DNA of 64,000 nucleotides, taken from Escherichia coli (GTDB taxonomy: Bacteria > Pseudomonadota > Gammaproteobacteria > Enterobacterales > Enterobacteriaceae). A program made the position numbers and the translations under genes. The notes under the pieces were generated by a model that saw only the letters and a list, made by a program, of their open reading frames with translations, ran no database searches and was not told where the DNA came from. Location: NCBI RefSeq assembly GCF_003991155.1, contig NZ_CP031293.1; one strand, written 5' to 3'. Position 1 is the first letter of the stretch. Each line of letters begins with the position of its first letter. This document shows positions 5,689 through 25,709 of the stretch, one piece after another.

Positions 5689-5989
5689 TATATCTCCTTA
5701 TGTTAATTATTATACATGGAGTAATACAATTATTCTCATCAGTCAAATCATAAAATTATAATAAATTCCATGAGTGGGTAAAGCTCAGTAGAAAAATAAA
5801 ATAGTGCAACGCATGTGATAGTATTTACTAACCAAAAACATCTGACACTCTCCGCGTTACTTATTTTTGCGCATTCGTGATTTTATTTTCACCTATCAAT
5901 TTTTAACTCTATTTTTCAATCTCAACCTGTGAATTGTGCAACACATAACACTCTCTGTTTTATTGGTTTTTTTCATCAAATTTAGCTAT

Positions 5990-6036
5990 CCCGCCTTACG
6001 GCGGGAATAATTAATACCTCTTTTGCCCTTACGGGC
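5990..6036 (+). other. Candidate oriT: two GC-stem hairpins sharing a TTAC loop
   Basis: cccgcc-ttac-ggcggg (5990-6005) and gccc-ttac-gggc (6025-6036), about 300 bp upstream of the relaxase gene; relaxase genes usually sit next to their oriT. Confidence 0.3.
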
Positions 6037-6337
6037 CTTTTCTTTACTCTTTTTGTCCTGTGGATGTGAAACCTACACCTTTAATCCAGTTTGCGCCGCT
6101 TATTCCGGCGTATTATTTTACAACAATACATATATTTCGTATTAATTGATAAGAGGGGCATTTTACATTGGCTTATTTTCTTAAAGACAATGCCCACCTA
6201 TACACTGCGTAGCAGTGTGTGGGGTCTACCGACGGTTGCCTGCCGCAGGCTAAAAGCAAAACCAAGGTCAACGTCAACCCCGAAGTTTTTCTGACGAAAA
6301 ACTAACAGCAGCATTTATATTTGAGGTTATATTTTTA

Positions 6338-7819
6338 ATGGCGATTTTTCATCTGGATTTTAAAATTGTGAAACGAAGCGAAGGCATGACTTCTGTTGCG
6401 AAAGCTGCCTACCATGCCCGTACACGTATTACGGATGATCGCATTGGAGAAACATTTGATTTCAGCCACAGAACAGATCTTCATGGTCATATTATATTGG
6501 CACCTGTTTCCGCACCCTCTCATATTGTTGAAAGCTCCTCAACACTCTGGAATGAAGTTGAAAGAGTGGAACGCCAGAACAATGGTCAAACAGCCCGTTA
6601 TTTTGATGTCGCTATCCCCGTAGAACTCAGTAATGATGACAAGAAAAAATTGGTTGCTGAATACTGCCAGAAGAACTTTGTTGATAAGGGAATGATTGCC
6701 GATATCGCATTTCATGATTTAGACGGTAAAAATCCCCATGCTCACGTTATGTTAACCCTGAAAACTGTTGGTCCCGAAGGCTTCGGTAAAAAAGACAGAA
6801 GCTGGAATGATAAGAAGATAATGATCCAATGGCGTGAGTCATGGGCCACGATGTCAAACAGCTACCTTGAAGCTATTGGAAGTGAAGAACGTATCGATCA
6901 CCGTTCTCTCAGGACGCAATGTGCTGATGCCCTTACCCAAGCAGAAGAAGCATTCAGCGCTGAAGAGAAAGCATTCTGGCTTGCCAAGGCAACAGAAACA
7001 AACCGCCCGGCAATGCAGCGTGTTCATCGTGCTAAATGGAATAACACCGAGTCTCAGGAACAGCGAGCTGCTGAACAAGCTCAACGCGATCATCAAATTG
7101 AGGAAGCAAAGAAGGTCTACACTACATTCAGTGAGCTACCACTGGAAATCGTGGTTGATGTTCGCTCTTACTCTGTTTACCAGCTTCCTGAACCGGAAGA
7201 GATCGTTCTCCCTGACTTCCCAGCTACAACTAAACAGCAACCTGTTTCAGCGACACCAGCCATAAGCAGAAGACCAGCAGCAAAATCTTACCGTGATCCC
7301 AGTAAGGTCAGTAAAGTAAATGTTTCAGGGAAGAAATCCCCTGTTCTGGTTGCGCCTGAACCAACTGCATCCACTAAATTGAAAACCCCATCTCTTCAAA
7401 AAACCAGAGCGATGAACCGCGCTCCTGTGAGGAGTAGGAAACAGACCAAGCCCCGCCAGAATGGTTTGTTTAAACGTTTCACGCTACTGATAGTAGGATA
7501 TATAAGAGAGAAATTTATCTGGGCCAAAAGGAAAGCAGATACCACTGATGCTGACCATGACAAGCGTATCGCAGAGAACTATATCTATGATGAAGTGCTG
7601 GGTGTCAATGTTCCACGTTCGGAGTTTGAAAAACGTACCAAATTTAACAATGGTGACTATAAATTAACACCTGATGAAATCAAGCGTTTCCCAAGCCGTC
7701 CTAATCAGGAACAGCCGGAAGTTAATAGAAGCATAGATCTCACACCTTCAATGCCACCAGAACACATGAGGCAAGGAAGCGCGCCAAAACTGAGTCCACC
7801 GAGCCATAAGAGACATTAA
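6338..7819 (+). CDS. mobA: MobA/MobL-family (MOBQ-type) conjugative relaxase
   Basis: N-terminus MAIFHLDFKIVKRSEG...AAYHARTRI parallels RSF1010 MobA (MAIYHL...), with the histidine triad region HAHVMLT and IDHRSLRTQ; C-terminal half is low-complexity. Confidence 0.8.
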   Translation: MAIFHLDFKIVKRSEGMTSVAKAAYHARTRITDDRIGETFDFSHRTDLHGHIILAPVSAPSHIVESSSTLWNEVERVERQNNGQTARYFDVAIPVELSNDDKKKLVAEYCQKNFVDKGMIADIAFHDLDGKNPHAHVMLTLKTVGPEGFGKKDRSWNDKKIMIQWRESWATMSNSYLEAIGSEERIDHRSLRTQCADALTQAEEAFSAEEKAFWLAKATETNRPAMQRVHRAKWNNTESQEQRAAEQAQRDHQIEEAKKVYTTFSELPLEIVVDVRSYSVYQLPEPEEIVLPDFPATTKQQPVSATPAISRRPAAKSYRDPSKVSKVNVSGKKSPVLVAPEPTASTKLKTPSLQKTRAMNRAPVRSRKQTKPRQNGLFKRFTLLIVGYIREKFIWAKRKADTTDADHDKRIAENYIYDEVLGVNVPRSEFEKRTKFNNGDYKLTPDEIKRFPSRPNQEQPEVNRSIDLTPSMPPEHMRQGSAPKLSPPSHKRH

Positions 7820-7897: not shown

Positions 7898-8380
7898 TTG
7901 CCAACCATTAACGAAATAAAAGTAGAAGCAGTTAAATTTCGTAGATTAATTGAAAGTTGTGATAAAAAGAATACCAGCCTTGTTATAGACTGTTTTCCTG
8001 TTATGAGCTGTAAGCTTACCTCAATGCTTCTTTCTTACCATTTTCTGACACTATGGCCTGAATGTGAGCTAAAAGGAGTTAGCGCAGCTACCGGGAAAAA
8101 TAGTCAAATAACCCATTACTGGCTTGAGATAGATAATATTGTAGTTGATATAACAGGGGATCAATATAACATTATCAATGATAAGGAACTAAACAATAAA
8201 ATTATAAAAAACAGGCCATATCCTGCCATCCATGTCGTATATAAAGAAAGTAGTTATCTTTATAACTTATTCAAAATTCGAGATAAAGAACCTATTATAC
8301 ATGGATTTCCAACATTTAGTGAAGATTTTATTGAAGAAATGGAACTTGGATATAATCAACTATTCAACAGAAAAGAATGA
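7898..8380 (+). CDS. Hypothetical cytoplasmic protein (TTG start), first gene of a two-gene cassette
   Basis: 160-aa ORF; GGGAG RBS 6 nt before TTG; 59 bp before next gene. Confidence 0.4.
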   Translation: MPTINEIKVEAVKFRRLIESCDKKNTSLVIDCFPVMSCKLTSMLLSYHFLTLWPECELKGVSAATGKNSQITHYWLEIDNIVVDITGDQYNIINDKELNNKIIKNRPYPAIHVVYKESSYLYNLFKIRDKEPIIHGFPTFSEDFIEEMELGYNQLFNRKE

Positions 8381-8438: not shown

Positions 8439-9011
8439 ATGACAATGGAAATACTTACAGCAATTCTTGTTATCATTACAGGAATTTATGCATTTTTGAC
8501 ATACAAGATGTCGAGAATAAGCGAACGAACAGCTCAGATAATGAATGAGCAAACCGAGGCAATGTCTCGTCCTTATATAATAATCCAGCCAATGGTAAGA
8601 CCTCACTCGCAATTCCTATACCTGAAAATTTATAATAGCGGTAAGACACCAGCCTTGAATGTAAAATTAGAATTAGATAAGGATTTTTATCAGTTCGATG
8701 AACCAACTAAAAACCTAAAAGAAACAAGTGTTTTTACATCAACTATTGATAGCTTAGCGCCCAATCAAGAGTTATTCTTCGCCCTTGGTCAAGGTTGGGT
8801 TATTTTTGGAGAATCCAAAAACCCTTTACCACAACAATTTACAATAACTGCAACGTATAGTTATATGAATAAAGAAGTTGTTGAAAAAAACAATATAGAC
8901 TTAAGCCCTTTCATGCAAAGTGAAGGTGAGAAAAATCCTATTGTTGAAGAGCTTGAAAGAATAAGAAAAACTCAAGAAAAATTGATGAAGGTATCTAACA
9001 AATCGATATAA
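8439..9011 (+). CDS. Hypothetical membrane-anchored protein (single N-terminal TM helix)
   Basis: N-terminus MTMEILTAILVIITGIYAFLTY is hydrophobic; GGAG RBS before ATG. Confidence 0.45.
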   Translation: MTMEILTAILVIITGIYAFLTYKMSRISERTAQIMNEQTEAMSRPYIIIQPMVRPHSQFLYLKIYNSGKTPALNVKLELDKDFYQFDEPTKNLKETSVFTSTIDSLAPNQELFFALGQGWVIFGESKNPLPQQFTITATYSYMNKEVVEKNNIDLSPFMQSEGEKNPIVEELERIRKTQEKLMKVSNKSI

Positions 9012-9104: not shown

Positions 9105-9635
9105 TTAGTTAGCTTTCCAACCATTACTGGTCTTAACTAAATTCATGGCACTATCAGCAGGTTCATTCATCCCTTTAACGCTGGCGAAGGCTTTTTTGTC
9201 AATCCAGCCCGGAACGTCAACCAGCTTCCACGTATAAGTCACGCGAACTACTTTCTGATTACCGTTTCCCGGCTCAGTCCATTCCTTAATCTCGTCAACA
9301 GCACGACGACCAACACAGGCACCGTCTGTTGTGCTCCAGACTTTGGCTTTTTTGCCTTCCTCTGTTATCCCTAATACATTCGAATCATAACCCTGCTCAA
9401 AAACCATCAGGCCCTGCTCAATAAAACCATCGAGGATCACTGAATTCGTCCCTGTGCCAGTCGAATCAAGTCGTGGCTTGGCAAGACAGATGGGGAAGCT
9501 GGTGTTATTGTTATCCAGCGAGAAGCAGTATTTGTCTTGCCCAATCTTGGCATTAATCGCTTTCTCAAACTCACCTTTCTCACCACATCCCGCCAGTGTC
9601 AGAGTTGCGCCTACAACGAGTAAAATCTTCTTCAT
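9105..9635 (-). CDS. Hypothetical lipoprotein
   Basis: Signal peptide with lipobox MKKILLVVGATLTLAGC when started at ATG 9635. Confidence 0.5.
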   Translation of the reverse strand: MKKILLVVGATLTLAGCGEKGEFEKAINAKIGQDKYCFSLDNNNTSFPICLAKPRLDSTGTGTNSVILDGFIEQGLMVFEQGYDSNVLGITEEGKKAKVWSTTDGACVGRRAVDEIKEWTEPGNGNQKVVRVTYTWKLVDVPGWIDKKAFASVKGMNEPADSAMNLVKTSNGWKAN

Positions 9636-9780
9636 CTGCTTATCCATCCTGATAATCAAAATTGCGTATGTTTTTTGACCTAATCCGGTCAGGGCTAGAG
9701 TTGTTGCGGGATCCGGCTGATATCACATGGCAAAATCACCGCTTAACCAATTGATAGGATTCAATTCTTTTTGAGGCTCG

Positions 9781-9942
9781 TCATATCGTTTAAAACGATC
9801 AAAAACAACCATATGATAGTTTTTAACTATCATAAATTGATATTCGATCGATTATAACAATTAATAACCGATCGATATCGCGATTTCAATCGTTATAATC
9901 TATCAATAACTCATTATCGATCTTTTATATCGATCATTATTT
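9781..9942. repeat. Cluster of ATCGAT-containing motifs and a 9-bp-arm palindrome in a divergent intergenic region
   Basis: atgatagttTTTaactatcat (9822-9842) plus at least 5 ATCGAT/GATCGAT motifs within about 170 bp. Confidence 0.4.
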
Positions 9943-10054
9943 CAAGTTCTGATAGCCTTGCAACGCCGAGACCGACGCCATGAGTTTGGTGCAGTAGGAC
10001 GTATAAAACGAAGCAAAGCTCTGTGAGCGGGTTCAGTCTCTTTAACTCATTTAC

Positions 10055-10543
10055 ATGGAGGAAGTAAGAGTGGAAGCAACAAGTATCGTTTTTTTAGTGG
10101 TGCTCTTCGTCATTATCATGACCGCAGCAGTTATACAGAAGAAAAAGCACTACAACAGCTTTACGGAAGTTCTGGACGGCGACATTATTTCGTATGAATG
10201 CCAGCAGACAGGTATTGTAATTGATACTCAAAAACATACTGTCCGTATTTTCAATAAAGATAAAGACAGCACATATACTTTTGATGAAATCCGGGAAATA
10301 AATTATACGCTTTCAGAGGGTGGTAAGTTTTACGGCAATGGAACATTACGAGGTATGAATAATGCGGCTATTGCTAACTGGAGAGAACAACTTTCAGCGA
10401 ATAAACGGTCTGGCCTAAATATTTTAACCGATGATATTAAAAATCCCATGTGGAAAGTTAATGTTCCCCTGAAAAATAAAAGCACTTCAAATCACGAACT
10501 TTGTGAGCGATGGATGCTGGTATTTAAAAAGTATGTTTTCTGA
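10055..10543 (+). CDS. Hypothetical membrane-anchored protein (start may be GTG at 10070)
   Basis: N-terminal hydrophobic segment SIVFLVVLFVIIMTAAVI; GGAGG 8 nt before in-frame GTG. Confidence 0.4.
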   Translation: MEEVRVEATSIVFLVVLFVIIMTAAVIQKKKHYNSFTEVLDGDIISYECQQTGIVIDTQKHTVRIFNKDKDSTYTFDEIREINYTLSEGGKFYGNGTLRGMNNAAIANWREQLSANKRSGLNILTDDIKNPMWKVNVPLKNKSTSNHELCERWMLVFKKYVF

Positions 10544-10574
10544 GTCTCACCTTTCATCTATTTATGGAACAAAA

Positions 10575-10952
10575 ATGAAAAAATTATTACTTGCTATTTT
10601 TATCATATTACCACTTGGTGGCTGTACGGTTCATGGTAATAAATCCCTAACTGATGAAAATCATCAAACGGTTAAATTAAAAATCGTCAAGGGGAAAACT
10701 ACCCAACAAGAAATTCTTGCTGCCTTTGGAGAGCCTCAGACACGCGCTACGAATGATGGGCAGGAGATGTGGAACTACTCAAGTATGACGGGAGAAAGCC
10801 AACTATCTAACTACATACCGGGCCTTGCTCTATTGACCAATAGCAGCACGGCACACATTAAATCACTGGATATCTGGTTTAAGGGTGATGTTGTGGAACG
10901 TTATGATTTTCGTCAGACTGCAAGTAAGACATCTCGTGGCCTGCTTGATTAA
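10575..10952 (+). CDS. Lipoprotein, possibly BamE/SmpA-OmlA-like
   Basis: MKKLLLAIFIILPLGGC lipobox; mature part has a pattern reminiscent of small OM lipoproteins (VKLKIVKGKTTQQEILAAFGEP). Confidence 0.45.
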   Translation: MKKLLLAIFIILPLGGCTVHGNKSLTDENHQTVKLKIVKGKTTQQEILAAFGEPQTRATNDGQEMWNYSSMTGESQLSNYIPGLALLTNSSTAHIKSLDIWFKGDVVERYDFRQTASKTSRGLLD

Positions 10953-10966
10953 TATGTGTATATATA

Positions 10967-10992
10967 GGCCACAAATAGTTGTGGCCCTTTTC
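10967..10992 (+). terminator. Intrinsic terminator
   Basis: ggccacaa-atag-ttgtggcc perfect 8-bp stem followed by cttttcc. Confidence 0.5.
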
Positions 10993-11001
10993 CGTTATCA
11001 T

Positions 11002-11613
11002 CTATTTTTGTTTATATAAATCGTAGGAACTTAATTTTTTAGATTTCTCATAGGCATTTTCAATGTATAAAGATACATCTGCTAAAAATCGGTCTTCTTC
11101 TATCAATGAAATATAAGAACCAGTCAATTGATCATATGATTTGCACTCAGGGCAACAATATTTATCTTCTGAAGTTAAATTAAACCTATTATTATTAATA
11201 ATGTCATATAGTTCAGTTGTGTCAATAGTTCTTGATGAACATCCATCAGGCTTGATTGAAGAAGATACTAACCAGTCATAGCTATTATTAACCTTCATTA
11301 TCACACCAACAATGCCATTAGTTCGGGAAGTGGTTCCTCCTCTCTTGTATTCTTTCAATGCATATTCAATTTCCCAGTCAATCCATTTACTTTTAATCAT
11401 ATTCGGGGAAATAATAACGATTAAAACAGATGTCCCGAAAATCATATTTTTAAGATTGTTCTTTATATTATCTACTGTTGTATTACTTATATCAGGAGAC
11501 TCCGATGTTTCCCCTTTATAGTAAACAGCATCATCACCTAATGCCTTGACAATTTTGTCTCTTAAATCCTGTGCTTCACTATATTTATATGATATGAATG
11601 TTTCATGAGCCAT
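11002..11613 (-). CDS. thsB: Thoeris ThsB, TIR-domain protein
   Basis: N-terminal ETFISYKYSEAQ and WIDWEIEYAL are typical TIR-domain signatures; 16 bp downstream of thsA on the same strand. Confidence 0.8.
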   Translation of the reverse strand: MAHETFISYKYSEAQDLRDKIVKALGDDAVYYKGETSESPDISNTTVDNIKNNLKNMIFGTSVLIVIISPNMIKSKWIDWEIEYALKEYKRGGTTSRTNGIVGVIMKVNNSYDWLVSSSIKPDGCSSRTIDTTELYDIINNNRFNLTSEDKYCCPECKSYDQLTGSYISLIEEDRFLADVSLYIENAYEKSKKLSSYDLYKQK

Positions 11614-11629
11614 AACTTCACCTAATATA

Positions 11630-13066
11630 TTATTTATTCAGTTTGTTTATGATTTTTATTACAACTTCTATTGTTTTTTTTACCGAAAAATCTTTTTCAG
11701 TAAGCTCAGACAAATCATTATATATCCATTCATTACTTCCATAATATTTCTTAGGATCTTGTGATATTTGTTCAAATATATATTTAGACATATACCCGGT
11801 ATTGGGTAAAGGAATTGGTACAAGGCCATGTTGAACAGCAATCTCAAACTCTCTAAATACTCCCCTAGCATTTACTATATCATTATTTTCCTCTTGTTTA
11901 TTTCCAAAAATAAACAATGCAATACCACCAAGAGGAATCATTCTCTGTCTATACTCCTCCCAAAGTTCTTGAATATCTTTCCCCTTACTGACAGTTTGTG
12001 GAAATGGTCTAACAATGAGCTGTTCTTCTGATAATTTATCTGGCCTACTATAAATTGCATCCAACGCACCATTTATCACAGAACTTCCGACGCCCCATCC
12101 AAATCCATTCACTATCCTATAATTATTCTTTATAATCTCATATGCTAATGTGTGAATAAAATCTAATGCTTTAGGTCTTTCAAGATCCCCATATTTTTCT
12201 GCACTACCAGAAATAAATATCGTTTTCTTTTTAAATGATTGCTCTATCTTAGCTAGAATTTTAGGGATGTCAGAATATTCATCTATTAATAATACTTGTA
12301 TACCAAATCTCTTGAGATCATCGATTCGCAGTTTTTGTTTTCTGATCTTATAATTTACTGTTTCTTCATCATCTAGGGAATTATTAGCCTCATTCTTCAT
12401 AAAGCAATAGTGTGTCCTCTTGTCCCCAGAATGAGTATACAAACGACTCAAAATGTAATCCAGATTTGGGTCGGTAAAACTAAACCCTATGAATAGAAAG
12501 GTTTTTGATATTAAATCTCCGCTAAGTGCGGTGATAAATGAAGCGTGTGTTCTGTAGTATTTTTCATACTGCTCTTTATATAAAATAGCCTTGGATGGGG
12601 ACGAAATATCACCATGCATTTTATATACTATCGCGTCTCGCTTAGGTCGTGTTGTATTTAAATCATCTATGTTTCTTTTTACATCTGCAATTTTGTAAAC
12701 TTTCCGCAGACTATCTTCAATTAAAGTGTCATAGTTTGTTGTCCAAAATGTCTTAATCGGTAAACGAGCAATTATATTATGAACCTCTGATGGCTCGGCT
12801 TGCTCAGAAAACTCTTCGATTATCTTCCTTGTGAGTTTTGTAGCCCCTTTCTTTTCATTAACATGAAATTGAGCAAGCGATATTAGATCGTCTTCTTTAT
12901 TAATGTCTAAACTAAGCTCTTCTGCTATATCGCTAAGTAATTCTTTCCAATCAACATAACCTTGACTTTTAGACATTCCTGCGCCAGAAAAAATAGCAGC
13001 ACAATCATTTTCAAGATCTTTAACAAAATCTTTTATGAAAACTTCAATTTCATTACTAAACGTCAT
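11630..13066 (-). CDS. thsA: Thoeris ThsA, SIR2 (NAD-binding) plus SLOG domain protein
   Basis: From ATG at 13066 (GGAG RBS 9 nt upstream) the protein MTFSNEIEVFIKDF...AAIFSGAGMS...TTNYD...MHGD (SIR2) then IFISGSA...GFGWGVGSSVINGALD (SLOG) closely parallels Bacillus cereus ThsA as I recall it. Confidence 0.85.
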   Translation of the reverse strand: MTFSNEIEVFIKDFVKDLENDCAAIFSGAGMSKSQGYVDWKELLSDIAEELSLDINKEDDLISLAQFHVNEKKGATKLTRKIIEEFSEQAEPSEVHNIIARLPIKTFWTTNYDTLIEDSLRKVYKIADVKRNIDDLNTTRPKRDAIVYKMHGDISSPSKAILYKEQYEKYYRTHASFITALSGDLISKTFLFIGFSFTDPNLDYILSRLYTHSGDKRTHYCFMKNEANNSLDDEETVNYKIRKQKLRIDDLKRFGIQVLLIDEYSDIPKILAKIEQSFKKKTIFISGSAEKYGDLERPKALDFIHTLAYEIIKNNYRIVNGFGWGVGSSVINGALDAIYSRPDKLSEEQLIVRPFPQTVSKGKDIQELWEEYRQRMIPLGGIALFIFGNKQEENNDIVNARGVFREFEIAVQHGLVPIPLPNTGYMSKYIFEQISQDPKKYYGSNEWIYNDLSELTEKDFSVKKTIEVVIKIINKLNK

Positions 13067-13274
13067 TACACTTATCTCCATTTTAACTATTATTCCCAAA
13101 AGTAGAGAATAAACCTTTCAACCGGAGTTCATGAAACAGCATCTAAAAATATTCTGCCGGATACGAGTAAAATCATACTGGATATAAAAACAGTTGTCGA
13201 GAACTAAAACAATTGAAAACATGGCCAGATGGCATAGATAATATTACATACGAAAATTATTAACCAGATAATAT

Positions 13275-14237
13275 TCACGATGGTGATGTTTCATCGGACA
13301 TCCTTACATTATAAAGAAAAACCAGATGCATATTTACATCATTTCTTTTCTTAAAATAGCTATAACGCTGGAGGCTCAGCCATTTTGATGTTGCCAATAC
13401 GTATGGGCAGCCCTCCTTCCTGCTGGCACAACTTCTTAATGGATTGCCACTCCGCTTTTCAGACTCCATGTGAGAAGTGAGCGAATCAAAAGCACCGTCG
13501 GCTACGACGATGGTAGGTTCTTCATCTGTTTCATTGCCGATCGACTCCGTATTTGTGCTTTCAGCACGTTCTTCTTCCAGTTCAGCCAGACTCGCTTTCA
13601 GCTCATCAAGGCTGCTGGCTGCGTCTTTTGGTGCATAGAAGAACAGCCCGCTAATGAAGATGGCTTCCATAACCTCTCTAAAAGAAAACGAGGTATCGCC
13701 ATAAACAAAGCAACTGTGCTTGGAACTCTTCACACCCGATACGTTTTTCTTCAGCAAACCGTCTTTCGGTGAAGTCATTAATGTCTGTTTGCTATAGAGG
13801 ATTACAGGAAGATTTTTAATTTGTTGAACATCGCCGCTGATACTCCAGCGTTCTTTATCTCCTTTGATAAAGCCGGAAGCATCACAGCTACTTTCTATGT
13901 CAAACTCATCAGTCGGGAAGCGCTCGCGATTAAAATAGGTCGAAAAATCCTCCCCTTCTTCCATATCCTGACGCTTGTAAGCGCGATAAACCGAGCTTCG
14001 ACGGTCAATTCCGATCCATTCAATATCCCATGCCGTTGGCCCGGACGGTTTTCTTACCTCATCTATATAAGCACCAACATCTCTGTCCAGATAAGCTGCT
14101 AACAAAGCCTTCCATGGTTCTATTGCCAGAAAGATACTTGCCAGCGTTGTTCCTTCTTCAATCAGAACGGTATGGTGGAAGAACCGGAGAAGAAAGAACG
14201 GATCGGTATTGGCTATGACGTTCTGGATGGATAGCAA
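13275..14237 (-). CDS. Hypothetical protein with acidic central region
   Basis: 320-aa ORF immediately upstream of thsA; no recognisable domain. Confidence 0.35.
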   Translation of the reverse strand: MLSIQNVIANTDPFFLLRFFHHTVLIEEGTTLASIFLAIEPWKALLAAYLDRDVGAYIDEVRKPSGPTAWDIEWIGIDRRSSVYRAYKRQDMEEGEDFSTYFNRERFPTDEFDIESSCDASGFIKGDKERWSISGDVQQIKNLPVILYSKQTLMTSPKDGLLKKNVSGVKSSKHSCFVYGDTSFSFREVMEAIFISGLFFYAPKDAASSLDELKASLAELEEERAESTNTESIGNETDEEPTIVVADGAFDSLTSHMESEKRSGNPLRSCASRKEGCPYVLATSKWLSLQRYSYFKKRNDVNMHLVFLYNVRMSDETSPS

Positions 14238-17359: not shown

Positions 17360-17764
17360 ATGAGTGAAGCTCTCAAGGCACTGAACAATATTCGTACACT
17401 TCGCGCACATGCTCGTGAAACAGATCTGACAACTCTGGAAGAGATGCTGGAAAAGCTCTCTGCTGTCGTTGAAGATCGCCGTGAGGAAGAAAATTCAGCC
17501 CGTAAAGAACAAGAAGAACGTCAGGCTAAACTGGAAGCCTTCCGCCAGAAATTGTTAGAAGACGGTATCGATCCTACAGAACTACTCGCTGCTGTTAGTT
17601 CATCCCAGCCTAAAGCCAAATCAACTCGTGCTCCTCGTCCTGCTAAATACAAATATACAGATGAAAACGGTAATGAGCAGACTTGGACGGGTCAGGGCCG
17701 TACTCCTAAAGCAATCGCCGCTGCTATCGAAGCTGGTAAGACACTGGAAGACTTTGCAATCTAA
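17360..17764 (+). CDS. H-NS family nucleoid-associated protein (island-encoded paralogue)
   Basis: [20 protein letters not shown]...[25 protein letters not shown] aligns closely with E. coli H-NS, including the DNA-binding TWTGQGRTP motif. Confidence 0.85.
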
Positions 17765-17827
17765 CCGCTACAGCATATCCGGGCTTCACTGTTCTCAAGA
17801 TAACAGGCCCGGAAAATATTCGATTTT

Positions 17828-18208
17828 TCATCCAAGGCTATCCCAGTCTGGCAGGTTGTTAACGACCTTTCGCCACCAATGATACGCAGCCATAAGAACA
17901 CCAAAACAAATACCTGCGACGACGCTTGAGACAAATGCAGTGCCCGGTTGTATCCCTGTATCCTTCCAAGTAAAAAACCACATACAGATCCCCCATGCCG
18001 GACCAAACCATCCACCCATCAACAAAGTGATTTGCCAGAATGAGGCAAAAGGTAGCGGTGGTATCTTGAGTCCAGCTTTCCATGCGAGGTGTAGCAAAGG
18101 AGGGGCATAATTACTTCGCCACATCTTCTTGCTTTCCATGATGGCAATAGCGTGTTTCTTTTTAGCTTCAAAGCCCATACGGTTCCCTCCAGCTCCACCT
18201 TTACTCAT
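17828..18208 (-). CDS. Hypothetical inner-membrane protein
   Basis: 126-aa ORF with two or more hydrophobic, Trp-rich segments. Confidence 0.4.
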   Translation of the reverse strand: MSKGGAGGNRMGFEAKKKHAIAIMESKKMWRSNYAPPLLHLAWKAGLKIPPLPFASFWQITLLMGGWFGPAWGICMWFFTWKDTGIQPGTAFVSSVVAGICFGVLMAAYHWWRKVVNNLPDWDSLG

Positions 18209-18282
18209 CTATCGATAAAAAGCCACAATAGACAATAATGATTATCAATTCCATGTATGTAAGTCAAAAATAACTCAAATAG

Positions 18283-18525
18283 TCATTCCTTTAGATCTTC
18301 TGGCGAAACCCGGTCACATGCCATTTTCTCAAGCATTCTTTGTAATCTTTTCATTTTCAACTTACGCGCTTTTTTCTCACCAATCTCCTGATAGTATTCT
18401 TCACGACGTTCGTTGACCACGCTCCTGAAATTTTTCAAAAGCTGTTCAAGTGTTTTGATGTCAGTAGTTGCGGCTTCCGCTTGGATTTTTTTATACATAT
18501 ACATCACATGAAATTCATCGATCAT
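18283..18525 (-). CDS. hnsT: Truncated H-NS-like protein (H-NST-like, oligomerisation domain only)
   Basis: 80-aa protein with TLEQLLKNFRSVVNERREE matching the H-NS N-terminal dimerisation region but no DNA-binding domain. Confidence 0.6.
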   Translation of the reverse strand: MIDEFHVMYMYKKIQAEAATTDIKTLEQLLKNFRSVVNERREEYYQEIGEKKARKLKMKRLQRMLEKMACDRVSPEDLKE

Positions 18526-18598
18526 TTTTTAGCTCCTTGAATAGACAAATAATATTTGTTATCAGCCCCAAGAAGGGGCCGATAGACACCAGAACATA

Positions 18599-18895
18599 TC
18601 AACATATTGATTCCGCCAGAACCGTATAATGCATTTTGGCTAATGCCTGCTTAACCCCCTTAAAATCCACCTCAGATAGTTTTTCAGCCGCGTTCTTTTT
18701 CCATGCTTTTTTCAGAAGATGTTTCTCCGCATTTCTCATCGCCAGATCGATTAGCCTACAGACAAACTCATGATCCATTACATGCGTTATAATCATATTA
18801 CTGGTCGTTTTATCCTTTGAGTTAAAAAGCTCCGCGTAGATATGCAAGGACACAACATAAAAGATTTCAGTATTTTTATTTTTAAATGTATTCAT
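18599..18895 (-). CDS. Hypothetical protein
   Basis: ORF 18599..18955; likely start MNTFKNK at 18895. Confidence 0.3.
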   Translation of the reverse strand: MNTFKNKNTEIFYVVSLHIYAELFNSKDKTTSNMIITHVMDHEFVCRLIDLAMRNAEKHLLKKAWKKNAAEKLSEVDFKGVKQALAKMHYTVLAESIC

Positions 18896-18939
18896 TGGCT
18901 TTTCCTTTTGGTTAATATTAAAAATGAAATGCTGTAGCA

Positions 18940-19242
18940 TTAGCGGTATACACACTTATAGACAATCCAAAGCTGACGAAGGTGTTGTTTTACCTTACTG
19001 TGGCTTACTTCTCCATAAATCCGATTCCTTTGGTCTTCTTCTGTGTCATCATAAAAATGATATCTCGTTTTTTTAATGATACTTTCCATAATGTCATTCA
19101 TATTGTATTTATTGTTGAGAAAATAATAAAAATCATCTGGTGCATTCCTCTGCAATTCGTCCATATAGTTCCTAAAATAACATTCGGCTTGTTCAATAAA
19201 CTGTTTTGTCGTAATAAGTTCTATCTTCATATTCTTCTCCAT
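18940..19242 (-). CDS. Hypothetical protein
   Basis: 100-aa ORF. Confidence 0.3.
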   Translation of the reverse strand: MEKNMKIELITTKQFIEQAECYFRNYMDELQRNAPDDFYYFLNNKYNMNDIMESIIKKTRYHFYDDTEEDQRNRIYGEVSHSKVKQHLRQLWIVYKCVYR

Positions 19243-19311
19243 TATTATTTAGGATAATAAAATGCCCTGTGCGAACAGTTATCTGTTCGACACGAGATCT
19301 TGTTTCTGTTT

Positions 19312-19530
19312 TTATGCAGCGTTCTGGCGTGAGTTTCGAATAGTCGTTTCAATCCATTCATCAATCTCACTTTCAACAAAAGCAACACACCTCGGACCTA
19401 TTTTTACTCTGTCAGGAAAGTTTCCTTCCTTAATACGCTCATATAAAGTCGTGCGACTGAATCCCACTCGATTTAAAACATCAGGAACGCGGATAAATCG
19501 TTTTACGCTGGTTTCAATATTTTCTTTCAT
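19312..19530 (-). CDS. alpA: AlpA-family phage regulatory protein (MerR-like HTH)
   Basis: IRVPDVLNRVGFSRTTLYERIKEGNFPDRVKIGPRCVAFVESEIDEWI matches the AlpA pattern; AGAGGA RBS 6 nt before ATG 19530. Confidence 0.7.
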   Translation of the reverse strand: MKENIETSVKRFIRVPDVLNRVGFSRTTLYERIKEGNFPDRVKIGPRCVAFVESEIDEWIETTIRNSRQNAA

Positions 19531-19745
19531 TGTCTGTCCTCTATTATTGTAAGTAATCTCTATGAGATTTCGCTTTTCTCTATGTTGTTTCGACGTGAAC
19601 AATGATAGCGATTTTGCTTATGGTAATTTAGGGACGTTCAAAGAAGTTTTTTTTGAAAAATTCGAAGGGGCACGGATGGAAAGATAACGGTTAACACTGG
19701 ATGAGATCACGTTCGCTCGGAGCGAACGTAACCCTTTTACTTGGC

Positions 19746-20639
19746 TTATTTTTTCTTATTCCTGTCGTCTTCTACATGCTTTTCAACAGGGGAGTCTTTC
19801 AAGTGGTTGTTTTCCATCATGTAATCTTCAAGCGATTTCAGATAGCTCGCATCCGTCAGAAAAGCCATTGCTAACGGGTAGTCCGTTGCCTTTAGCATTC
19901 CTTCATCACGATCGTTGTCGCTGTCCTCGTGAAGCAGCGAAGAAATCAGTGAAAGCGGGATTTTAATGCCGTTATCTTCTCCCCAGAAGATCAGGTCCAT
20001 CATCGGGATAAGACGATATTCAATGATTTTTCTGAATGTGCTTTTGCCGAAACGATACTCTCTTGGCGCTGGAGACTTCATCTTAAGCTGTCTCTTCCAT
20101 TGAGGGATCAGCACTTTCAGATGTTCAATGATTTCTTCAGTTGATGCCTCTTCCAGATGAATATCGACAGTAATGCGTGAAAGATTATTAAGGGATGTTT
20201 CTTTTAGATACTCGGACAGAAATTCGGATTCGCTTAACGCGGAAAGCTCAGGCGTGGCTTCGGTTAATGCCAGCGTTTTCGCATAAAATTGCGCGTGGCT
20301 TCGTGTCGTAGGATTTACCGCGTAGGTTCTGGCAAGCTCATGTCCAAGGGTAGCGGTATCACCACTGAAAAAGATTTCACCGCTGAGGATCTTGTTGCGG
20401 TAATCATCCAGCATTAATCGGTTAAAGGTAGGTATGGTGTTCCGGCTCAACAACATTCTGTAAGCCAAGATACGCCGCTCAACCTCAACATAAAACTGCT
20501 GTAAGGTGAGTTTCTCTATCGCCTCATATCGTTCCACATCAAACCATGCTTCCAGTGCTTTCCTGATTTCACTTCTTTTCATCCATCCTCCAACAATCCA
20601 TTTCCTTTGATATATCTTCACAGGATCCGTTTGGAACAA
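19746..20639 (-). CDS. Hypothetical protein occupying the position next to tRNA-Ser where an integrase would be expected
   Basis: 297-aa ORF, no tyrosine- or serine-recombinase motifs recognisable; same orientation as alpA. Confidence 0.4.
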   Translation of the reverse strand: MFQTDPVKIYQRKWIVGGWMKRSEIRKALEAWFDVERYEAIEKLTLQQFYVEVERRILAYRMLLSRNTIPTFNRLMLDDYRNKILSGEIFFSGDTATLGHELARTYAVNPTTRSHAQFYAKTLALTEATPELSALSESEFLSEYLKETSLNNLSRITVDIHLEEASTEEIIEHLKVLIPQWKRQLKMKSPAPREYRFGKSTFRKIIEYRLIPMMDLIFWGEDNGIKIPLSLISSLLHEDSDNDRDEGMLKATDYPLAMAFLTDASYLKSLEDYMMENNHLKDSPVEKHVEDDRNKKK

Positions 20640-20860
20640 TTGAAGTTCAACTGTTTTGTCATCAGAGACGGGGGAATGGCTAAGTTGTTGTTAAGAGTGT
20701 GAACTCGAGAGCATAAAAGTGGATGCCCGACGCGCGGCAAAATGGTAAAAAACAGCATCAGTAGTAAGAAAAATTGAGCGAGAGAAAGGAATTTTAATGC
20801 AGGGATTTATGCATGACAAAATCAAAAATACTTTGTAAGTGATTGATTTTGTTGAATGAT

Positions 20861-20950
20861 TGGCGGAGAGAGGGGGATTTGAACCCCCGGTAGAGTTGCC
20901 CCTACTCCGGTTTTCGAGACCGGTCCGTTCAGCCGCTCCGGCATCTCTCC
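20861..20950 (-). tRNA. serU: tRNA-Ser (anticodon CGA), serU
   Basis: Reverse complement reads GGAGAGATGCCGGAGCGGCTGAACGGACCGGTCTCGAAAACCGGAGTAGGGGCAACTCTACCGGGGGTTCAAATCCCCCTCTCTCCGCCA, matching the E. coli serU sequence as I recall it. Confidence 0.95.
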
Positions 20951-21043
20951 GTTCAGATGGTTGCCATGATGCCAGGAAATTTGGCATTTTAACAGTCCCT
21001 GTCCGTGCAATTTTGTTCAAGTGACGAGTTTGCGAGCAAAACG

Positions 21044-21841
21044 ATGATTAAGTGGCCCTGGAAAGTACAAGAATCAGCACATCAAACTGCCCTTCCCTGG
21101 CAGGAAGCACTATCGATCCCCCTTTTAACGTGTCTGACGGAACAGGAACAAAGCAAATTAGTCACTCTTGCCGAACGTTTTTTACAGCAAAAGCGGCTTG
21201 TTCCTTTACAGGGCTTTGAACTGGATTCATTAAGAAGCTGCCGGATAGCACTTCTATTTTGCCTACCCGTTCTGGAGTTAGGACTGGAATGGCTGGATGG
21301 TTTTCATGAAGTCTTAATTTATCCTGCGCCATTTGTGGTCGATGATGAATGGGAAGACGATATCGGTCTGGTGCATAACCAACGTATTGTTCAGTCAGGT
21401 CAGAGCTGGCAGCAAGGGCCTATCGTTTTGAACTGGTTGGATATACAAGATTCTTTTGATGCTTCTGGTTTTAACCTGATTATTCATGAAGTCGCTCATA
21501 AGCTGGACACCCGTAACGGCGATCGCGCCAGCGGAGTTCCCTTTATTCCGTTGCGTGAGGTTGCTGGCTGGGAACACGATCTTCATGCTGCAATGAACAA
21601 CATTCAGGAAGAAATCGAATTGGTTGGCGAGAATGCGGCGAGCATCGATGCTTATGCTGCCAGTGATCCTGCTGAATGTTTTGCCGTACTTTCTGAATAT
21701 TTCTTTAGCGCCCCAGAACTTTTTGCTCCTCGTTTCCCTTCATTGTGGCAACGTTTCTGCCAATTTTATCAACAAGATCCTTTGCAGAGACTGCATCACG
21801 CTAATGATACAGACTCGTTTTCGGCGACGAATGTTCATTAA
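21044..21841 (+). CDS. mtfA: MtfA (Mlc titration factor A, zinc-dependent peptidase)
   Basis: MIKWPWK... and HEVAHKLD zinc-binding motif; near-identical over most of its length to E. coli MtfA, with a divergent C-terminal tail. Confidence 0.9.
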
Positions 21842-21941
21842 TTAACAACTTTGCAGATTAATTAACCAATTGAAATGACTTATGAAATTTATTGTTGACA
21901 GACAAGGTACCGCTAAGTAATATGCGCCCCGTTCACACGAT

Positions 21942-22017
21942 TCCTCTGTAGTTCAGTCGGTAGAACGGCGGACTGTTAATCCGTATGTCACTGGTTCGAG
22001 TCCAGTCAGAGGAGCCA
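21942..22017 (+). tRNA. asnT: tRNA-Asn (anticodon GTT), asnT locus
   Basis: TCCTCTGTAGTTCAGTCGGTAGAACGGCGGACTGTTAATCCGTATGTCACTGGTTCGAGTCCAGTCAGAGGAGCCA, matching E. coli tRNA-Asn. Confidence 0.95.
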
Positions 22018-22183
22018 AATTTTAGTCTTGAGACATCTCTATAAGTCTCAGGATAGTTAAAAAACAAGAACTTATCTTTACCCGGTTGTCTCGCAAGAGG
22101 CTGCTGGGTTTCTTGACATCCATAGTTTTTAGGGGCCTAATCAGGGGCCTCACGGTTCGGTGAGCAAACGGAGCCCCCACGCT

Positions 22184-23446
22184 ATGGCATTAACAGACAC
22201 CGCTATTCGCAAGACTAAACCCTCTGACAAACCCTTCAAAATGACGGACAGTTCTGGACTGTACCTGTTGATCAAACCTAACGGCTCAAAACTCTGGTAT
22301 ATGAAGTACCGCATCGACGGCAAAGAGAAGAAACTGGCCTTTGGCCCCTACCCGGAGATCTCCCTGTTGCAGGCTCGCCGCCTGCGCGAAACAGCACGCA
22401 ATAACATTCATGCAGGCGTCGATCCGGCTGCGGTGAAGCAAACCGAGAAACAGAAGAGGAAAAACGGGCAGACGTTCAGCCAGATCGCCATCAACTGGCA
22501 TAGCGAGCATAAACGCTGGTCTGAGCATTACGCGAAAACGGTTATGCGCAGGCTGGAAATGTACGTTTTCCCGGATATCGGGGATCGCCTTATCGAGGAG
22601 ATCGAAACGGAGGATTTGTTATTCACGTTGCGCAAGGTAGAGAGTAAAGGCTTTCTGGAAATCACCGCGCGGCTGAAAAACTACGTCACCGATATCATGC
22701 ACTACGCGATGAAAAAGAAACTGCTCAAAGCGAACCCGGCGCTGTATCTGGACGGTGAGTTTGCCGCGCCAGAAACCAGTCACTACCCGGCCCTGTCGCT
22801 GGATAAGTTGCCTGAGCTTTTATCCCGGACAGAGAATTACTGCGGCAGGCTGCTGACGAAATACGCCCTCAAACTTTCGCTGCTGTTTTTCGTGCGCTCC
22901 AGCGAGCTACGTTTTGCCCGCTGGAGTGAAATCGACTGGCAGCAAAAACTGTGGGTGATCCCGGAAGAACGCGAGCAGATCGAAAACGTGCGCTTCTCTT
23001 ACCGGGGGGCGAAAATGAAAATCCAGCACATTGTGCCGCTGTCGGATCAGGCGATTGCGATACTGAAGCAGATCGAGGCCCTCTCCGGGCATCTGGCCTT
23101 TATTTTTCCCGGCGAATACGACCAGAACAAGTGCATGAGCGACAACACCGTCAACAAGGCGCTGCGCGTGATGGGTTACGACACCAAAAAGGATATCTGC
23201 GGGCATGGCTTCCGGGCAATGGCCTGTAGTGCGCTGAGCGAATCGGGATTATGGAGCAAAGAAGCCATTGAAAAGCAGATGAGCCACCAGGAAAGAAACA
23301 GCGTCCGTGCTGCCTATATTCACAAGGCTGAATATCTGGAGGAACGGATCGAGATGATGCAGTGGTGGTCAGATTATCTTGATGCAAACAGTGACGGGTA
23401 TGTCTCGGCTTACCAGTATGCCCGCCGCCTAAAACAGGCGTCGTAA
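22184..23446 (+). CDS. int: P4-type tyrosine integrase
   Basis: MALTDTAIRKTKPSDKP...LYLLIKPNGSKLW N-terminus and C-terminal HGFRAMA...RAAYIH catalytic motifs; immediately downstream of tRNA-Asn. Confidence 0.9.
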   Translation: MALTDTAIRKTKPSDKPFKMTDSSGLYLLIKPNGSKLWYMKYRIDGKEKKLAFGPYPEISLLQARRLRETARNNIHAGVDPAAVKQTEKQKRKNGQTFSQIAINWHSEHKRWSEHYAKTVMRRLEMYVFPDIGDRLIEEIETEDLLFTLRKVESKGFLEITARLKNYVTDIMHYAMKKKLLKANPALYLDGEFAAPETSHYPALSLDKLPELLSRTENYCGRLLTKYALKLSLLFFVRSSELRFARWSEIDWQQKLWVIPEEREQIENVRFSYRGAKMKIQHIVPLSDQAIAILKQIEALSGHLAFIFPGEYDQNKCMSDNTVNKALRVMGYDTKKDICGHGFRAMACSALSESGLWSKEAIEKQMSHQERNSVRAAYIHKAEYLEERIEMMQWWSDYLDANSDGYVSAYQYARRLKQAS

Positions 23447-23540
23447 GTTAACAAAGCATCAGAGGGGGAAAAGGTATATTCCCCCTTTGTGCGTTTCAAA
23501 TGTCGATGCTGACTGTAGCTTTTAAACTAAATTACTGGAT

Positions 23541-23569
23541 AAAAAGTAGCTTTTAAGCTACTATCTTTT
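23541..23569. promoter_or_regulatory. Palindrome agtagctt-tt-aagctact, with a related copy about 30 bp upstream; candidate operator
   Basis: Perfect 8-bp-arm inverted repeat immediately before the toxin-gene start. Confidence 0.3.
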
Positions 23570-23738
23570 ATGAAAACGATAAAGACCTACATAACTGCCG
23601 ACGGGCGAGATCTGTATGCAGAGTTTTTTAAAGGGTTACGCAACCCCATCGCGAAGGCAACGATCGCTTCCCGGATCAACCGGATGGCTTCGGACAATTT
23701 TGGCGACCATAAGCCCTGCCGGGAAGGTGTCTGGGAAC
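23570..23738 (+). pseudogene. 5' fragment of an addiction-module killer protein (RelE/ParE superfamily), truncated by IS insertion
   Basis: MKTIKTYITADGRDLYAEFFKGL...NFGDHKPCREGVWEL runs directly into the IS terminal repeat at 23739; no continuation on the other side. Confidence 0.45.
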
Positions 23739-23746
23739 TGTAGTGG

Positions 23747-25709
<1,963 letters not shown>

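Follow-up and report, generated by a model that had tools for sequence, protein, structure and literature searches.

We analyzed a two-gene locus at positions 10,055 to 10,952 of a 64,000-nucleotide (nt) stretch of Escherichia coli DNA (RefSeq assembly GCF_003991155.1, contig NZ_CP031293.1), here called the window. The locus encodes a small DUF4755 protein and a lipoprotein of the SEN1984 family, and we propose it as a candidate Dam/OxyR-controlled envelope locus on a known family of genomic islands. Read as a whole, the two genes, which belong to the island backbone, may constitute an operon and a phase-variable envelope module, probably with an exclusion-like activity, a reading that we advance tentatively. 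The genes and the island have been annotated and described before, and a BamE-like prediction for SEN1984 has already been published. New in the present analysis are the conserved opvAB-like array upstream of the pair, the incidental nature of its adjacency to a Thoeris defense system, the recognition of the lipoprotein family as a widespread phage and plasmid moron, and the predicted cytoplasmic, PH-like character of the DUF4755 domain together with its association with relaxase genes.

The gene pair and its island

The first open reading frame (ORF A, the DUF4755 gene and SEN1983 homologue; 10070–10543, + strand, stop TGA at 10543) encodes 157 amino acids from a GTG at 10070. This start is more probable than an alternative ATG at 10055, which would yield 162 amino acids, because a GGAGGA Shine-Dalgarno sequence (10057–10062) lies 8 nt before it and RefSeq uses the same start. 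ORF B, the SEN1984-family lipoprotein gene (ATG 10575 to TAA 10952, + strand, 125 amino acids), follows after a gap of 31 nt. A first-pass annotation of this DNA had described an N-terminally anchored protein of 157–162 amino acids, a lipoprotein 32 bp further on, and a strong terminator; the spacing needs correction to 31 nt, and the rest was borne out. The terminator is a GC-rich bidirectional intrinsic hairpin at 10967–10986 (GGCCACAA-ATAG-TTGTGGCC, followed by CTTTTCC; −13 kcal/mol, and −14.5 on the other strand), which lies between the lipoprotein stop codon and that of thsB at 11002. It is common to the pair and to thsB (11002–11613, opposite strand), which converges on the pair with 49 nt between the two stop codons. 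The earlier placement of the pair downstream of thsB is therefore correct for adjacency and not for transcription.

Judged by their substitution patterns, both ORFs are genuine genes, because the ratio of nonsynonymous to synonymous substitution (dN/dS) against diverged homologues is 0.04–0.2 and gene order is kept in nine islands. The separate values, 0.06–0.2 for the DUF4755 gene and 0.04–0.06 for the lipoprotein gene, indicate strong purifying selection on both, with synonymous sites saturated at larger distances. Gene order is identical in all nine distinct, diverged homologous island loci that have a full-length DUF4755 gene, and the lipoprotein gene lies 31–57 nt after its partner in every locus examined (tblastn over fetched loci). 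Islands of E. coli, an Escherichia sp., Yersinia, Brenneria, Samsonia and Affinibrenneria carry the pair, while a scan of species-representative genomes returned four loci only. A smaller type of island, at ssrA, also has it, in the order integrase, small genes, MobA_MobL relaxase, DUF4755, lipoprotein, AlpA and a cargo protein of 1522 amino acids. Across islands the lipoprotein is the most conserved of the backbone proteins compared, at 73–79% identity against 56–71% for DUF4755, 41–61% for MobQ and ~50% for SEN1982. Such conservation suggests a conserved host partner and speaks against a role in diversifying recognition specific to each element. On a 393-kb record, the place of the pair in a related island copy is taken by a DUF4755 variant that has no transmembrane helix (30% identity), after which no lipoprotein gene follows.

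The region is part of the E. coli chromosome and is collinear at ~100% identity with strain WW2; a plasmid origin is ruled out, as every near-identical match is chromosomal. The island measures ~22 kb, has a G+C content of 37% against 52% in the flanking core, and runs from before the first position of the window to ~20950, between zinT and tRNA-Ser(CGA) (20861–20950), with the tRNA-Ser gene serU as its insertion site. As annotated at the identical WW2 locus, its backbone comprises a tyrosine integrase, PilV, a type IV pilin, TraD, a MobQ relaxase (6338–7819), RepL, two H-NS homologues, an AlpA-type regulator and DUF6387. Insertion at a tRNA gene together with an integrase, an AlpA-type recombination directionality factor, MobQ, TraD, PilV/pilin and H-NS, and the retention of the pair while cargo varies, identify it by gene content as the serU island as in CFT073, a member of the ROD21-like 'EARL' integrative mobilizable family. 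These are excisable islands mobilized by helper plasmids (PMC6035254, PMC3976249). In ROD21 the two genes correspond to SEN1983, an annotated pseudogene labeled 'exported protein', and SEN1984, also labeled 'exported protein' (PMC3198454); the published Phyre2 prediction of a BamE-like SEN1984 came without a function (PMC10655114). ROD21 and the CFT073 serU (TcpC) island carry orthologues in the same order of SEN1982 lipoprotein, array, DUF4755 and lipoprotein (PMC3198454, PMC6035254, PMC10655114), on the same backbone of integrase, PilV/pilin, TraD, MobQ, RepL, H-NS, AlpA and DUF6387. They differ in that both genes are intact here, whereas SEN1983 is a pseudogene in strain P125109 and the lipoprotein gene is frameshifted in one CFT073 assembly, and in that type I Thoeris follows the pair here, as against a methyltransferase or a helix-hairpin-helix protein.

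This Thoeris system is complete (11002–13099, − strand; ThsB TIR, PADLOC E-value 3e-84; ThsA SIR2-SLOG, E-value 9e-203), and its proximity raises the question of whether the pair is an accessory component of it. Physical adjacency, with 49 nt between stop codons and a terminator in common, is what speaks for such a tie. On the other side, the genes are convergent and neither pair protein matches any PADLOC defense model. Of 5426 complete E. coli genomes, 392 have the pair, in each case on the chromosome (a place was counted when a 921-nt query spanning the pair was covered to at least 80%), as opposed to only 48 of 5426 for the ThsA/ThsB segment, which was always at the same junction in the rows inspected; these counts do not support a functional tie. 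The slot after the lipoprotein gene is occupied by unrelated cargo elsewhere: a helix-hairpin-helix protein in CFT073, other small genes in Yersinia and, after SEN1984 in ROD21, an S-adenosylmethionine-dependent methyltransferase (PMC3198454). Nucleotide homology among island variants ends a few bases from the lipoprotein stop codon (query position 913–915 of 921), and the terminator lies at or beyond the junction of backbone and cargo, as homology to the CFT073-type island stops at ~10953. Since the pair is far commoner than ThsAB, slot contents vary and homology breaks at the lipoprotein stop, we are nearly certain that the pair belongs to the island backbone and stands apart from Thoeris. 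Thoeris is swappable cargo at a hotspot beside it, one of several; membership of the pair in the system is effectively excluded, and the chance of an accessory role is vanishingly small. The case serves as a caution that a gene adjoining a defense system can be backbone, with the defense system as the cargo.

The upstream regulatory array

Upstream of the DUF4755 gene, a 410-nt intergenic region contains an array (9785–9934) of five 15-nt half-sites, R1 (9785), R2 (9816), R3 (9847), R4 (9889) and R5 (9920), with the palindromic motif AT(A/C)G-N7-C(T/G)AT. The pattern ATMGNTNNNANCKAT matches 11 times in the window, where ~6 matches are expected by chance, and five of the 11, including all three exact ones, fall inside these 150 nt. 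The OxyR half-site consensus is ATAGnTnnnAnCTAT, with which R1 to R5 agree at 8, 10, 8, 9 and 7 of 10 positions. Five GATC (Dam) sites (9797, 9846, 9870, 9919 and 9932) accompany them at a density among the highest in the window; GATC stands at the ends of R1, R3 and R5, and R2 and R4 are free of it. This arrangement is shared by nine islands whose coding DNA is ~65–70% identical, including the ssrA island that lacks SEN1982. The half-site arms and their spacing (31/31/42–43/31, which puts R2 and R4, and likewise R3 and R5, 73–74 nt apart) are invariant in all nine, with the inner seven bases free, and so are the five GATC sites, spaced 49/24–25/49/13.

The closest parallel is the opvAB switch of Salmonella, with which the array also shares a half-site spacing that keeps the sites on one helical face. 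A '10-nt consensus' for OxyR is referred to in the literature (PMC4856963), and opvAB has OxyR half-sites centered at −148, −116, −75 and −43 (32/41/32, with 73 nt between alternates) that score 10, 8, 10 and 7 of 10 (PMC4856963). It has four GATC sites; perfect half-sites alternate with imperfect ones that bear GATC, and the last site abuts the −35 element (PMC4856963). The present array shares with the opvAB, gtr and agn43 switches half-sites ~31/42/31 nt apart, alternates 73 nt apart, a last site abutting the promoter, and envelope products (PMC4856963), and it repeats the opvAB-type alternation of near-perfect GATC-free sites with imperfect GATC-bearing ones. Unlike opvAB, it counts five half-sites and as many GATC sites, against four of each, and OpvAB, Gtr and Ag43 bear no relation to the products of the pair, an inner-membrane protein with a PH-like domain and a lipoprotein of BamE fold.

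Alignment makes a promoter just downstream of R5 plausible (9940–9965, + strand; extended −10 TGaTAGCCT at 9950–9958). Its equivalent in most genera reads TTGAGT-16 nt-TGgTATGCT, and the E. coli group has an 11-nt deletion; a consensus promoter scan flagged instead TCGATA-16-TATAAT at 9872–9899, inside the array. From these comparisons with known switches, we consider it reasonably probable that a Dam/LysR-type switch operates here. No LysR-type regulator is encoded on the island, the phage-type lipoprotein morons discussed below are without such half-site boxes, an Rfam search found nothing, and the literature searched held no mention of Dam/OxyR control of these genes. Other roles for the array were considered. 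Service as an origin of transfer (oriT) is unlikely, as no RSF1010/Ti-type nick core TGCGCCCT lies nearby and oriT-like inverted repeats are found upstream of mobQ instead. Service as RepL iterons is likewise unlikely, as the ssrA island has the array and no called gene with a RepL Pfam match. The repeats upstream of mobQ are GC-rich, lie within 5980–6300 (for example atcccgccttacggcgggaat at 5989–6009, with a second at ~6024–6040), and are a candidate for the island oriT; that of ROD21 is said to be unidentified (PMC10655114).

The other flank of the array is formed, in EARL islands, by the divergent SEN1982-like lipoprotein gene (9105–9638, − strand; lipobox LAGC), which is absent from the ssrA island. 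R1 lies ~130–150 nt upstream of its start, and the switch might control this gene as well. Its presence bears on a different view, that the pair and the SEN1982 lipoprotein together form a phase-variable surface or immune-evasion virulence determinant and not a barrier against phage or DNA. Cargo of the family includes TcpC in CFT073 and the SEN1975 TIR protein (TcpS) in ROD21, and adhesins, Ag43 among them, are likewise under Dam/OxyR switches (Ag43 is named in PMC4856963). SEN1982 transposon mutants are described as attenuated in mice in two papers that cite Silva 2012 (PMC10655114, PMC6968874), and the gene is reported to be needed in Salmonella for systemic colonization. Against a virulence function stand the equal conservation of the pair in plant-associated Brenneria, Dickeya, Pectobacterium, Samsonia and Affinibrenneria, its occurrence in the small ssrA island without virulence cargo, and the SEN1983 pseudogene of a virulent S. 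Enteritidis reference strain (PMC3198454). We judge this view unlikely.

Further observations touch on regulation. Upstream of a distant DUF4755 gene (30% identity, two transmembrane helices) that follows a PF03432 relaxase gene, CGATCGATCG palindromes 62 nt apart and five GATC sites in ~70 nt (locus L030, 6770–6875) are reminiscent of the E. coli island array. The H-NS homologues of the island are one full-length protein (17360–17764, + strand) and one truncated (18283–18525, − strand), and xenogeneic silencing may act on top of any Dam/OxyR control, as the whole island, pair included, is AT-rich (37% G+C). Deletion of SEN1990 in ROD21 lowered expression of the gtr/oafB operon, itself Dam/OxyR phase-variable (PMC10655114); crosstalk between a ROD21-type array and gtr/oafB through OxyR occupancy is pure speculation.

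Predicted products and possible functions

The product of ORF B begins with a lipoprotein signal peptide (residues 1–16, MKKLLLAIFIILPLGG|C) that ends in an LGGC lipobox with lipidated Cys17 (10623–10625). The lipobox and Cys17 are invariant in family alignments, and the +2 residue, Thr, corresponds to outer-membrane sorting. In the AlphaFold2 model, a disordered N-terminal tether leads into a helix (44–51) and four strands (56–60, 63–74, 92–103 and 106–116) with a core predicted local distance difference test (pLDDT) score of 84–91, which is the alpha-beta SmpA_OmlA lipoprotein fold. Its structural matches were a BLIP-like protein (3d4e; score 7.0), TpgA, the partner of a trimeric autotransporter (6.4), the type VI secretion immunity protein BtiO (5.6), BamE (5.4 and 5.0) and OsmE (5.0). 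The match to Pfam BamE (PF04355) is below threshold (E-value 0.037, 14.3 bits), and profile-profile alignment with E. coli BamE by hhalign gave a probability of 47% and an E-value of 2e-4. Like BamE, OsmE, TpgA and BtiO, which are small lipoproteins or secreted proteins with a helix and a four-stranded sheet, it fits the signature 'G-x-T-x(2)-(E/Q)-(V/I)-x(3)-(F/L)-G-x-P ... W-x-Y'. Unlike BamE-type proteins, it falls short of the Pfam threshold, is encoded outside the core genome, belongs to a mobile family of phages, plasmids and islands, and has a conserved extra C-terminal motif, K/R-x-G-L/W. A gene with a clear PF04355 match adjoins smpB in loci L003 to L005 (1209–1550 in L003). We therefore regard the lipoprotein as a distant member of the protein-binding BamE/BLIP fold class and not as housekeeping BamE. 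The BamE-like pattern noted earlier holds for the fold and not for membership of the Pfam family; neither gene of the pair proved to be a core-genome homologue of an envelope biogenesis protein.

The fold similarity, the weak BamE profile match and the Phyre2 result for SEN1984 (PMC10655114) nevertheless allow a rival view of the lipoprotein, as a paralogue of BamE with a tuning effect on the BAM complex or on Rcs signaling. It would compete with or supplement BamE and thereby change the assembly of outer-membrane proteins, with DUF4755 as an unrelated passenger. The very high conservation across genera would suit a conserved partner such as BamA or BamD. Weighed against this are the sub-threshold Pfam score, the BLIP-like protein and TpgA as best structural matches, the presence of housekeeping bamE elsewhere, and the general use of the fold as a protein-binding module, and we find a BamE paralogue very unlikely.

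The distribution of the lipoprotein family points in another direction. ORF B matches phrog_3135 over residues 1–121 (E-value 2.2e-33), essentially its full length, and relatives at 30–40% identity are found among deposited temperate phages (seven), phage-plasmids and plasmids (137 records, chiefly conjugative plasmids of Burkholderia and Acetobacteraceae); 147 IMG/VR contigs also hold the family. In the lambdoid phages PhiR26_1 and S107 the gene lies directly downstream of cI, the position that rexAB has in lambda. In 37 of 80 viral loci the gene just before it, in the same orientation, is a recognizable cI homologue, and the remainder are morons in the tail region or next to an antirepressor gene. 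Four representative phage loci have an apparent promoter of their own, and two of them (S107, L019; RAH1, L021) an upstream terminator. Phage-type lipoprotein morons (L019, L020, L011) share a promoter-like block, AT(A/G)ATGTTAA(G/T)ATG(C/T)TTC, ~50 nt upstream of the start codon; such a block with an upstream terminator is the signature of an autonomous cassette. The interval between cI and N is a hotspot for defense genes expressed in lysogens and holds rexAB and bstA elsewhere (PMC8585504). This moron context beside cI is the main reason to favor an exclusion or lysogenic-conversion activity, and by analogy an exclusion-type role for the lipoprotein is plausible. Cor, T5 Llp and F TraT, together with the inner-membrane exclusion protein TraS, offer a model. 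The first three are small lipoproteins of the outer membrane that a resident phage, plasmid or island expresses, in some cases from a moron position after cI or among tail genes, and the pairing of an inner- with an outer-membrane protein has its counterpart here. The island lipoprotein differs from them in having no sequence similarity beyond the signal peptide and in being too conserved to encode island-specific exclusion groups.

The ORF A product matches Pfam DUF4755 (PF15947; E-value 5.6e-14, residues 44–158), and its RefSeq orthologue is named DUF4755 domain-containing. It has a single N-terminal hydrophobic helix (residues 4–22; 10079–10135), and in the AlphaFold2 model (pLDDT 72, one of five models confident) a transmembrane helix at 2–28 precedes a beta-sandwich that has a C-terminal helix as its cap and a helical insertion at 93–113. 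This seven-stranded sandwich with its helical cap corresponds to a PH-like fold. An exhaustive profile search gathered 179 clusters at an E-value of 1e-3 or lower, with one, two or no transmembrane helices, tandem domains or C-terminal zinc-ribbon fusions. The flank after the last transmembrane helix is K/R-rich and the N-terminus neutral or acidic in all membrane-anchored members checked except P0194, whose transmembrane call is ambiguous. The position of this flank and the existence of forms with a zinc ribbon or without a membrane helix are the reasons why the PH-like domain is predicted to be tethered to the inner membrane and cytoplasmic, which contradicts the old 'exported protein' label. 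A disulfide-bonded periplasmic domain is ruled out, as the two cysteines invariant in close relatives are not kept across the family. Membrane-anchored bacterial PH-domain proteins of the bPH_2 (YdbS/YdbT) type have the same architecture, one or two N-terminal transmembrane helices and then a cytoplasmic PH-like domain; the DUF4755 protein differs from them in lacking a Pfam bPH match and in the helical insertion, which is peculiar to its family. A fold search of AFDB50 returned only uncharacterized DUF4755 proteins, and the literature searched mentioned neither DUF4755 nor c2402.

No phage carries DUF4755, as tblastn gave no match. Distant members occur in a small integrase/RepL/MobA_MobL element beside a TraD-like accessory gene, directly after a PF03432 relaxase gene in an AlpA/DUF6387 island, next to ArdC and after MazEF; the association with relaxase modules is frequent, not universal. 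On this basis the pair could be a mobilization accessory, in which DUF4755 would be an adaptor that brings the MobQ relaxosome or incoming relaxase-DNA to a helper type IV secretion channel and the lipoprotein would aid the mating junction at the outer membrane. MobB of R1162/RSF1010, small and membrane-associated, would be its analogue. In four independent architectures, among them one with a relaxase of the different family PF03432, DUF4755 genes come directly after relaxase genes or within ~2.2 kb of them, one relative adjoins ArdC, the domain is predicted to be cytoplasmic and membrane-tethered, and EARL islands are mobilized by helper plasmids (PMC6035254, PMC3976249). Some DUF4755 relatives sit among core genes with no relaxase nearby, though, the lipoprotein family flourishes in non-conjugating phages, neither protein resembles known relaxosome proteins, and a phase-variation switch is atypical of transfer accessory genes. 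A mobilization role therefore seems rather unlikely to us.

Our preferred reading remains that of a phase-variable envelope module. agn43, gtr and opvAB all control cell-surface traits, and gtr and opvAB affect phage susceptibility. These are the OxyR/Dam switches named in the literature (PMC4856963), and because they govern surface traits, two of them phage susceptibility, an envelope trade-off is the most economical reading. In the mechanism that we envisage, Dam methylation would compete with OxyR, or with a different regulator of the LysR type, and expression of the pair would thereby become bistable. In the OFF state the regulator would occupy the near-perfect, GATC-free R2 and R4, and in the ON state the GATC-bearing R3 and R5 next to the promoter, as in opvAB. 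In ON cells, the lipoprotein would engage a conserved protein of the envelope from the periplasmic side of the outer membrane, and this binding would alter access to the cell for incoming phage or conjugative DNA, in the manner of superinfection or surface exclusion, or another surface property. The DUF4755 protein would work on the cytoplasmic side of the inner membrane, perhaps on the traffic of relaxase-linked DNA, because its genes repeatedly adjoin relaxase genes. That the output is specifically exclusion of phage or DNA entry, by analogy with known systems, we hold to be possible yet doubtful. Still more demanding is an epigenetically bet-hedged exclusion system of two layers, with the BamE-mimicking lipoprotein masking an entry protein, the PH-domain protein intercepting relaxase-DNA or phage DNA, and an opvAB-type switch turning both ON in a subpopulation; this elaboration is improbable.

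Several findings weigh against the envelope-module reading. SEN1983 is a pseudogene in S. Enteritidis P125109 (PMC3198454), and one CFT073 assembly has a frameshifted lipoprotein gene. In E. coli YD786, the EARL island at tRNA-Asn (locus 17627–25270) is decaying: frameshifts affect mobQ and the DUF4755 gene, and the homologues of SEN1982 and SEN1984 are cut short by two copies of IS3. Because such pseudogene, frameshift and degraded alleles occur, the pair is dispensable for island maintenance; in YD786 it was lost together with the rest of the transfer backbone, and the two places scored for this genome in the pair count are a single IS3-split island, not two co-resident copies. The two products are predicted in different compartments and may function independently of each other. 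Each also occurs alone: phages and plasmids carry the lipoprotein and no DUF4755, and elsewhere DUF4755 is present with no lipoprotein; searches with custom hidden Markov models found no hidden DUF4755 gene beside phage and plasmid lipoprotein homologues and no hidden lipoprotein gene beside distant DUF4755 genes, two of which lie among core genes (rbfA-infB; after fis). The half-site motif ATC-N9-GAT is at the same time the general box of LysR-type proteins, so a regulator other than OxyR could act here, and the promoter is placed by alignment, with the 11-nt indel shifting its distance to R5 between genera. The AlphaFold2 models are of moderate overall confidence (pLDDT 62 and 72 for the two proteins). 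No similarity was found to the characterized exclusion or receptor-blocking proteins TraT/TraS, Eex, TrbK, Cor and Llp; NCBIfam gave no match above cut-off, and only a sub-threshold signal-peptide match to TrsH/TraH, and a PDB sequence search with three profiles gave nothing significant, with Llp matching on the signal peptide only (E-value 0.19–0.67).

The first-pass annotation had suggested an envelope-associated defense, exclusion or immunity module. Signal-peptide, topology and structure prediction support the envelope association, through the inner-membrane anchor and the outer-membrane lipoprotein with their PH-like and BamE/BLIP-like folds; the exclusion role is plausible only, and a link to Thoeris is not sustained by the genome counts. 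Its statement that function could not be inferred from sequence was too pessimistic, as topology, folds, family distribution and a Dam/OxyR-type array could all be read.

Neighboring features and significance

Other features of the region are of interest in their own right. A second cargo hotspot of the island separates mobQ from the SEN1982 lipoprotein gene; in CFT073 it is filled by genes for TcpC, a second TIR protein and a macro-domain protein. Here it contains two ORFs on the + strand, at 7898–8380 (160 amino acids) and 8439–9011 (190 amino acids), the second a DUF8453 protein with an N-terminal transmembrane helix. They match phrog_26734 and phrog_9607 weakly and no PADLOC model, and could be an uncharacterized defense or effector pair. 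Beyond Thoeris, the ORF at 13275–14237 (− strand, 320 amino acids) is a homologue of a 320-amino-acid hypothetical protein of CFT073, probably SEN1986, and is marked by RefSeq as a frameshifted pseudogene at the identical locus. Further on (21942–23446 and beyond), a second integrase at the neighboring tRNA-Asn gene (21942–22017) opens another island, for which the annotation of the identical WW2 locus lists IS3, yafT and a cluster for type VI secretion (Hcp, VasL, TssM).

All intact members of the island family have the gene pair, and the cargo of this family includes TIR effectors (TcpC, and SEN1975 of ROD21) and, here, Thoeris. If the array works as a Dam/OxyR switch, it would add a new locus to a very short list that consists of agn43, gtr and opvAB, and it would be the first on the backbone of a mobilizable island. 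The proposal, if true, would also provide a testable phenotype for two families of 'unknown function', DUF4755 and the phrog_3135/SEN1984 lipoproteins.

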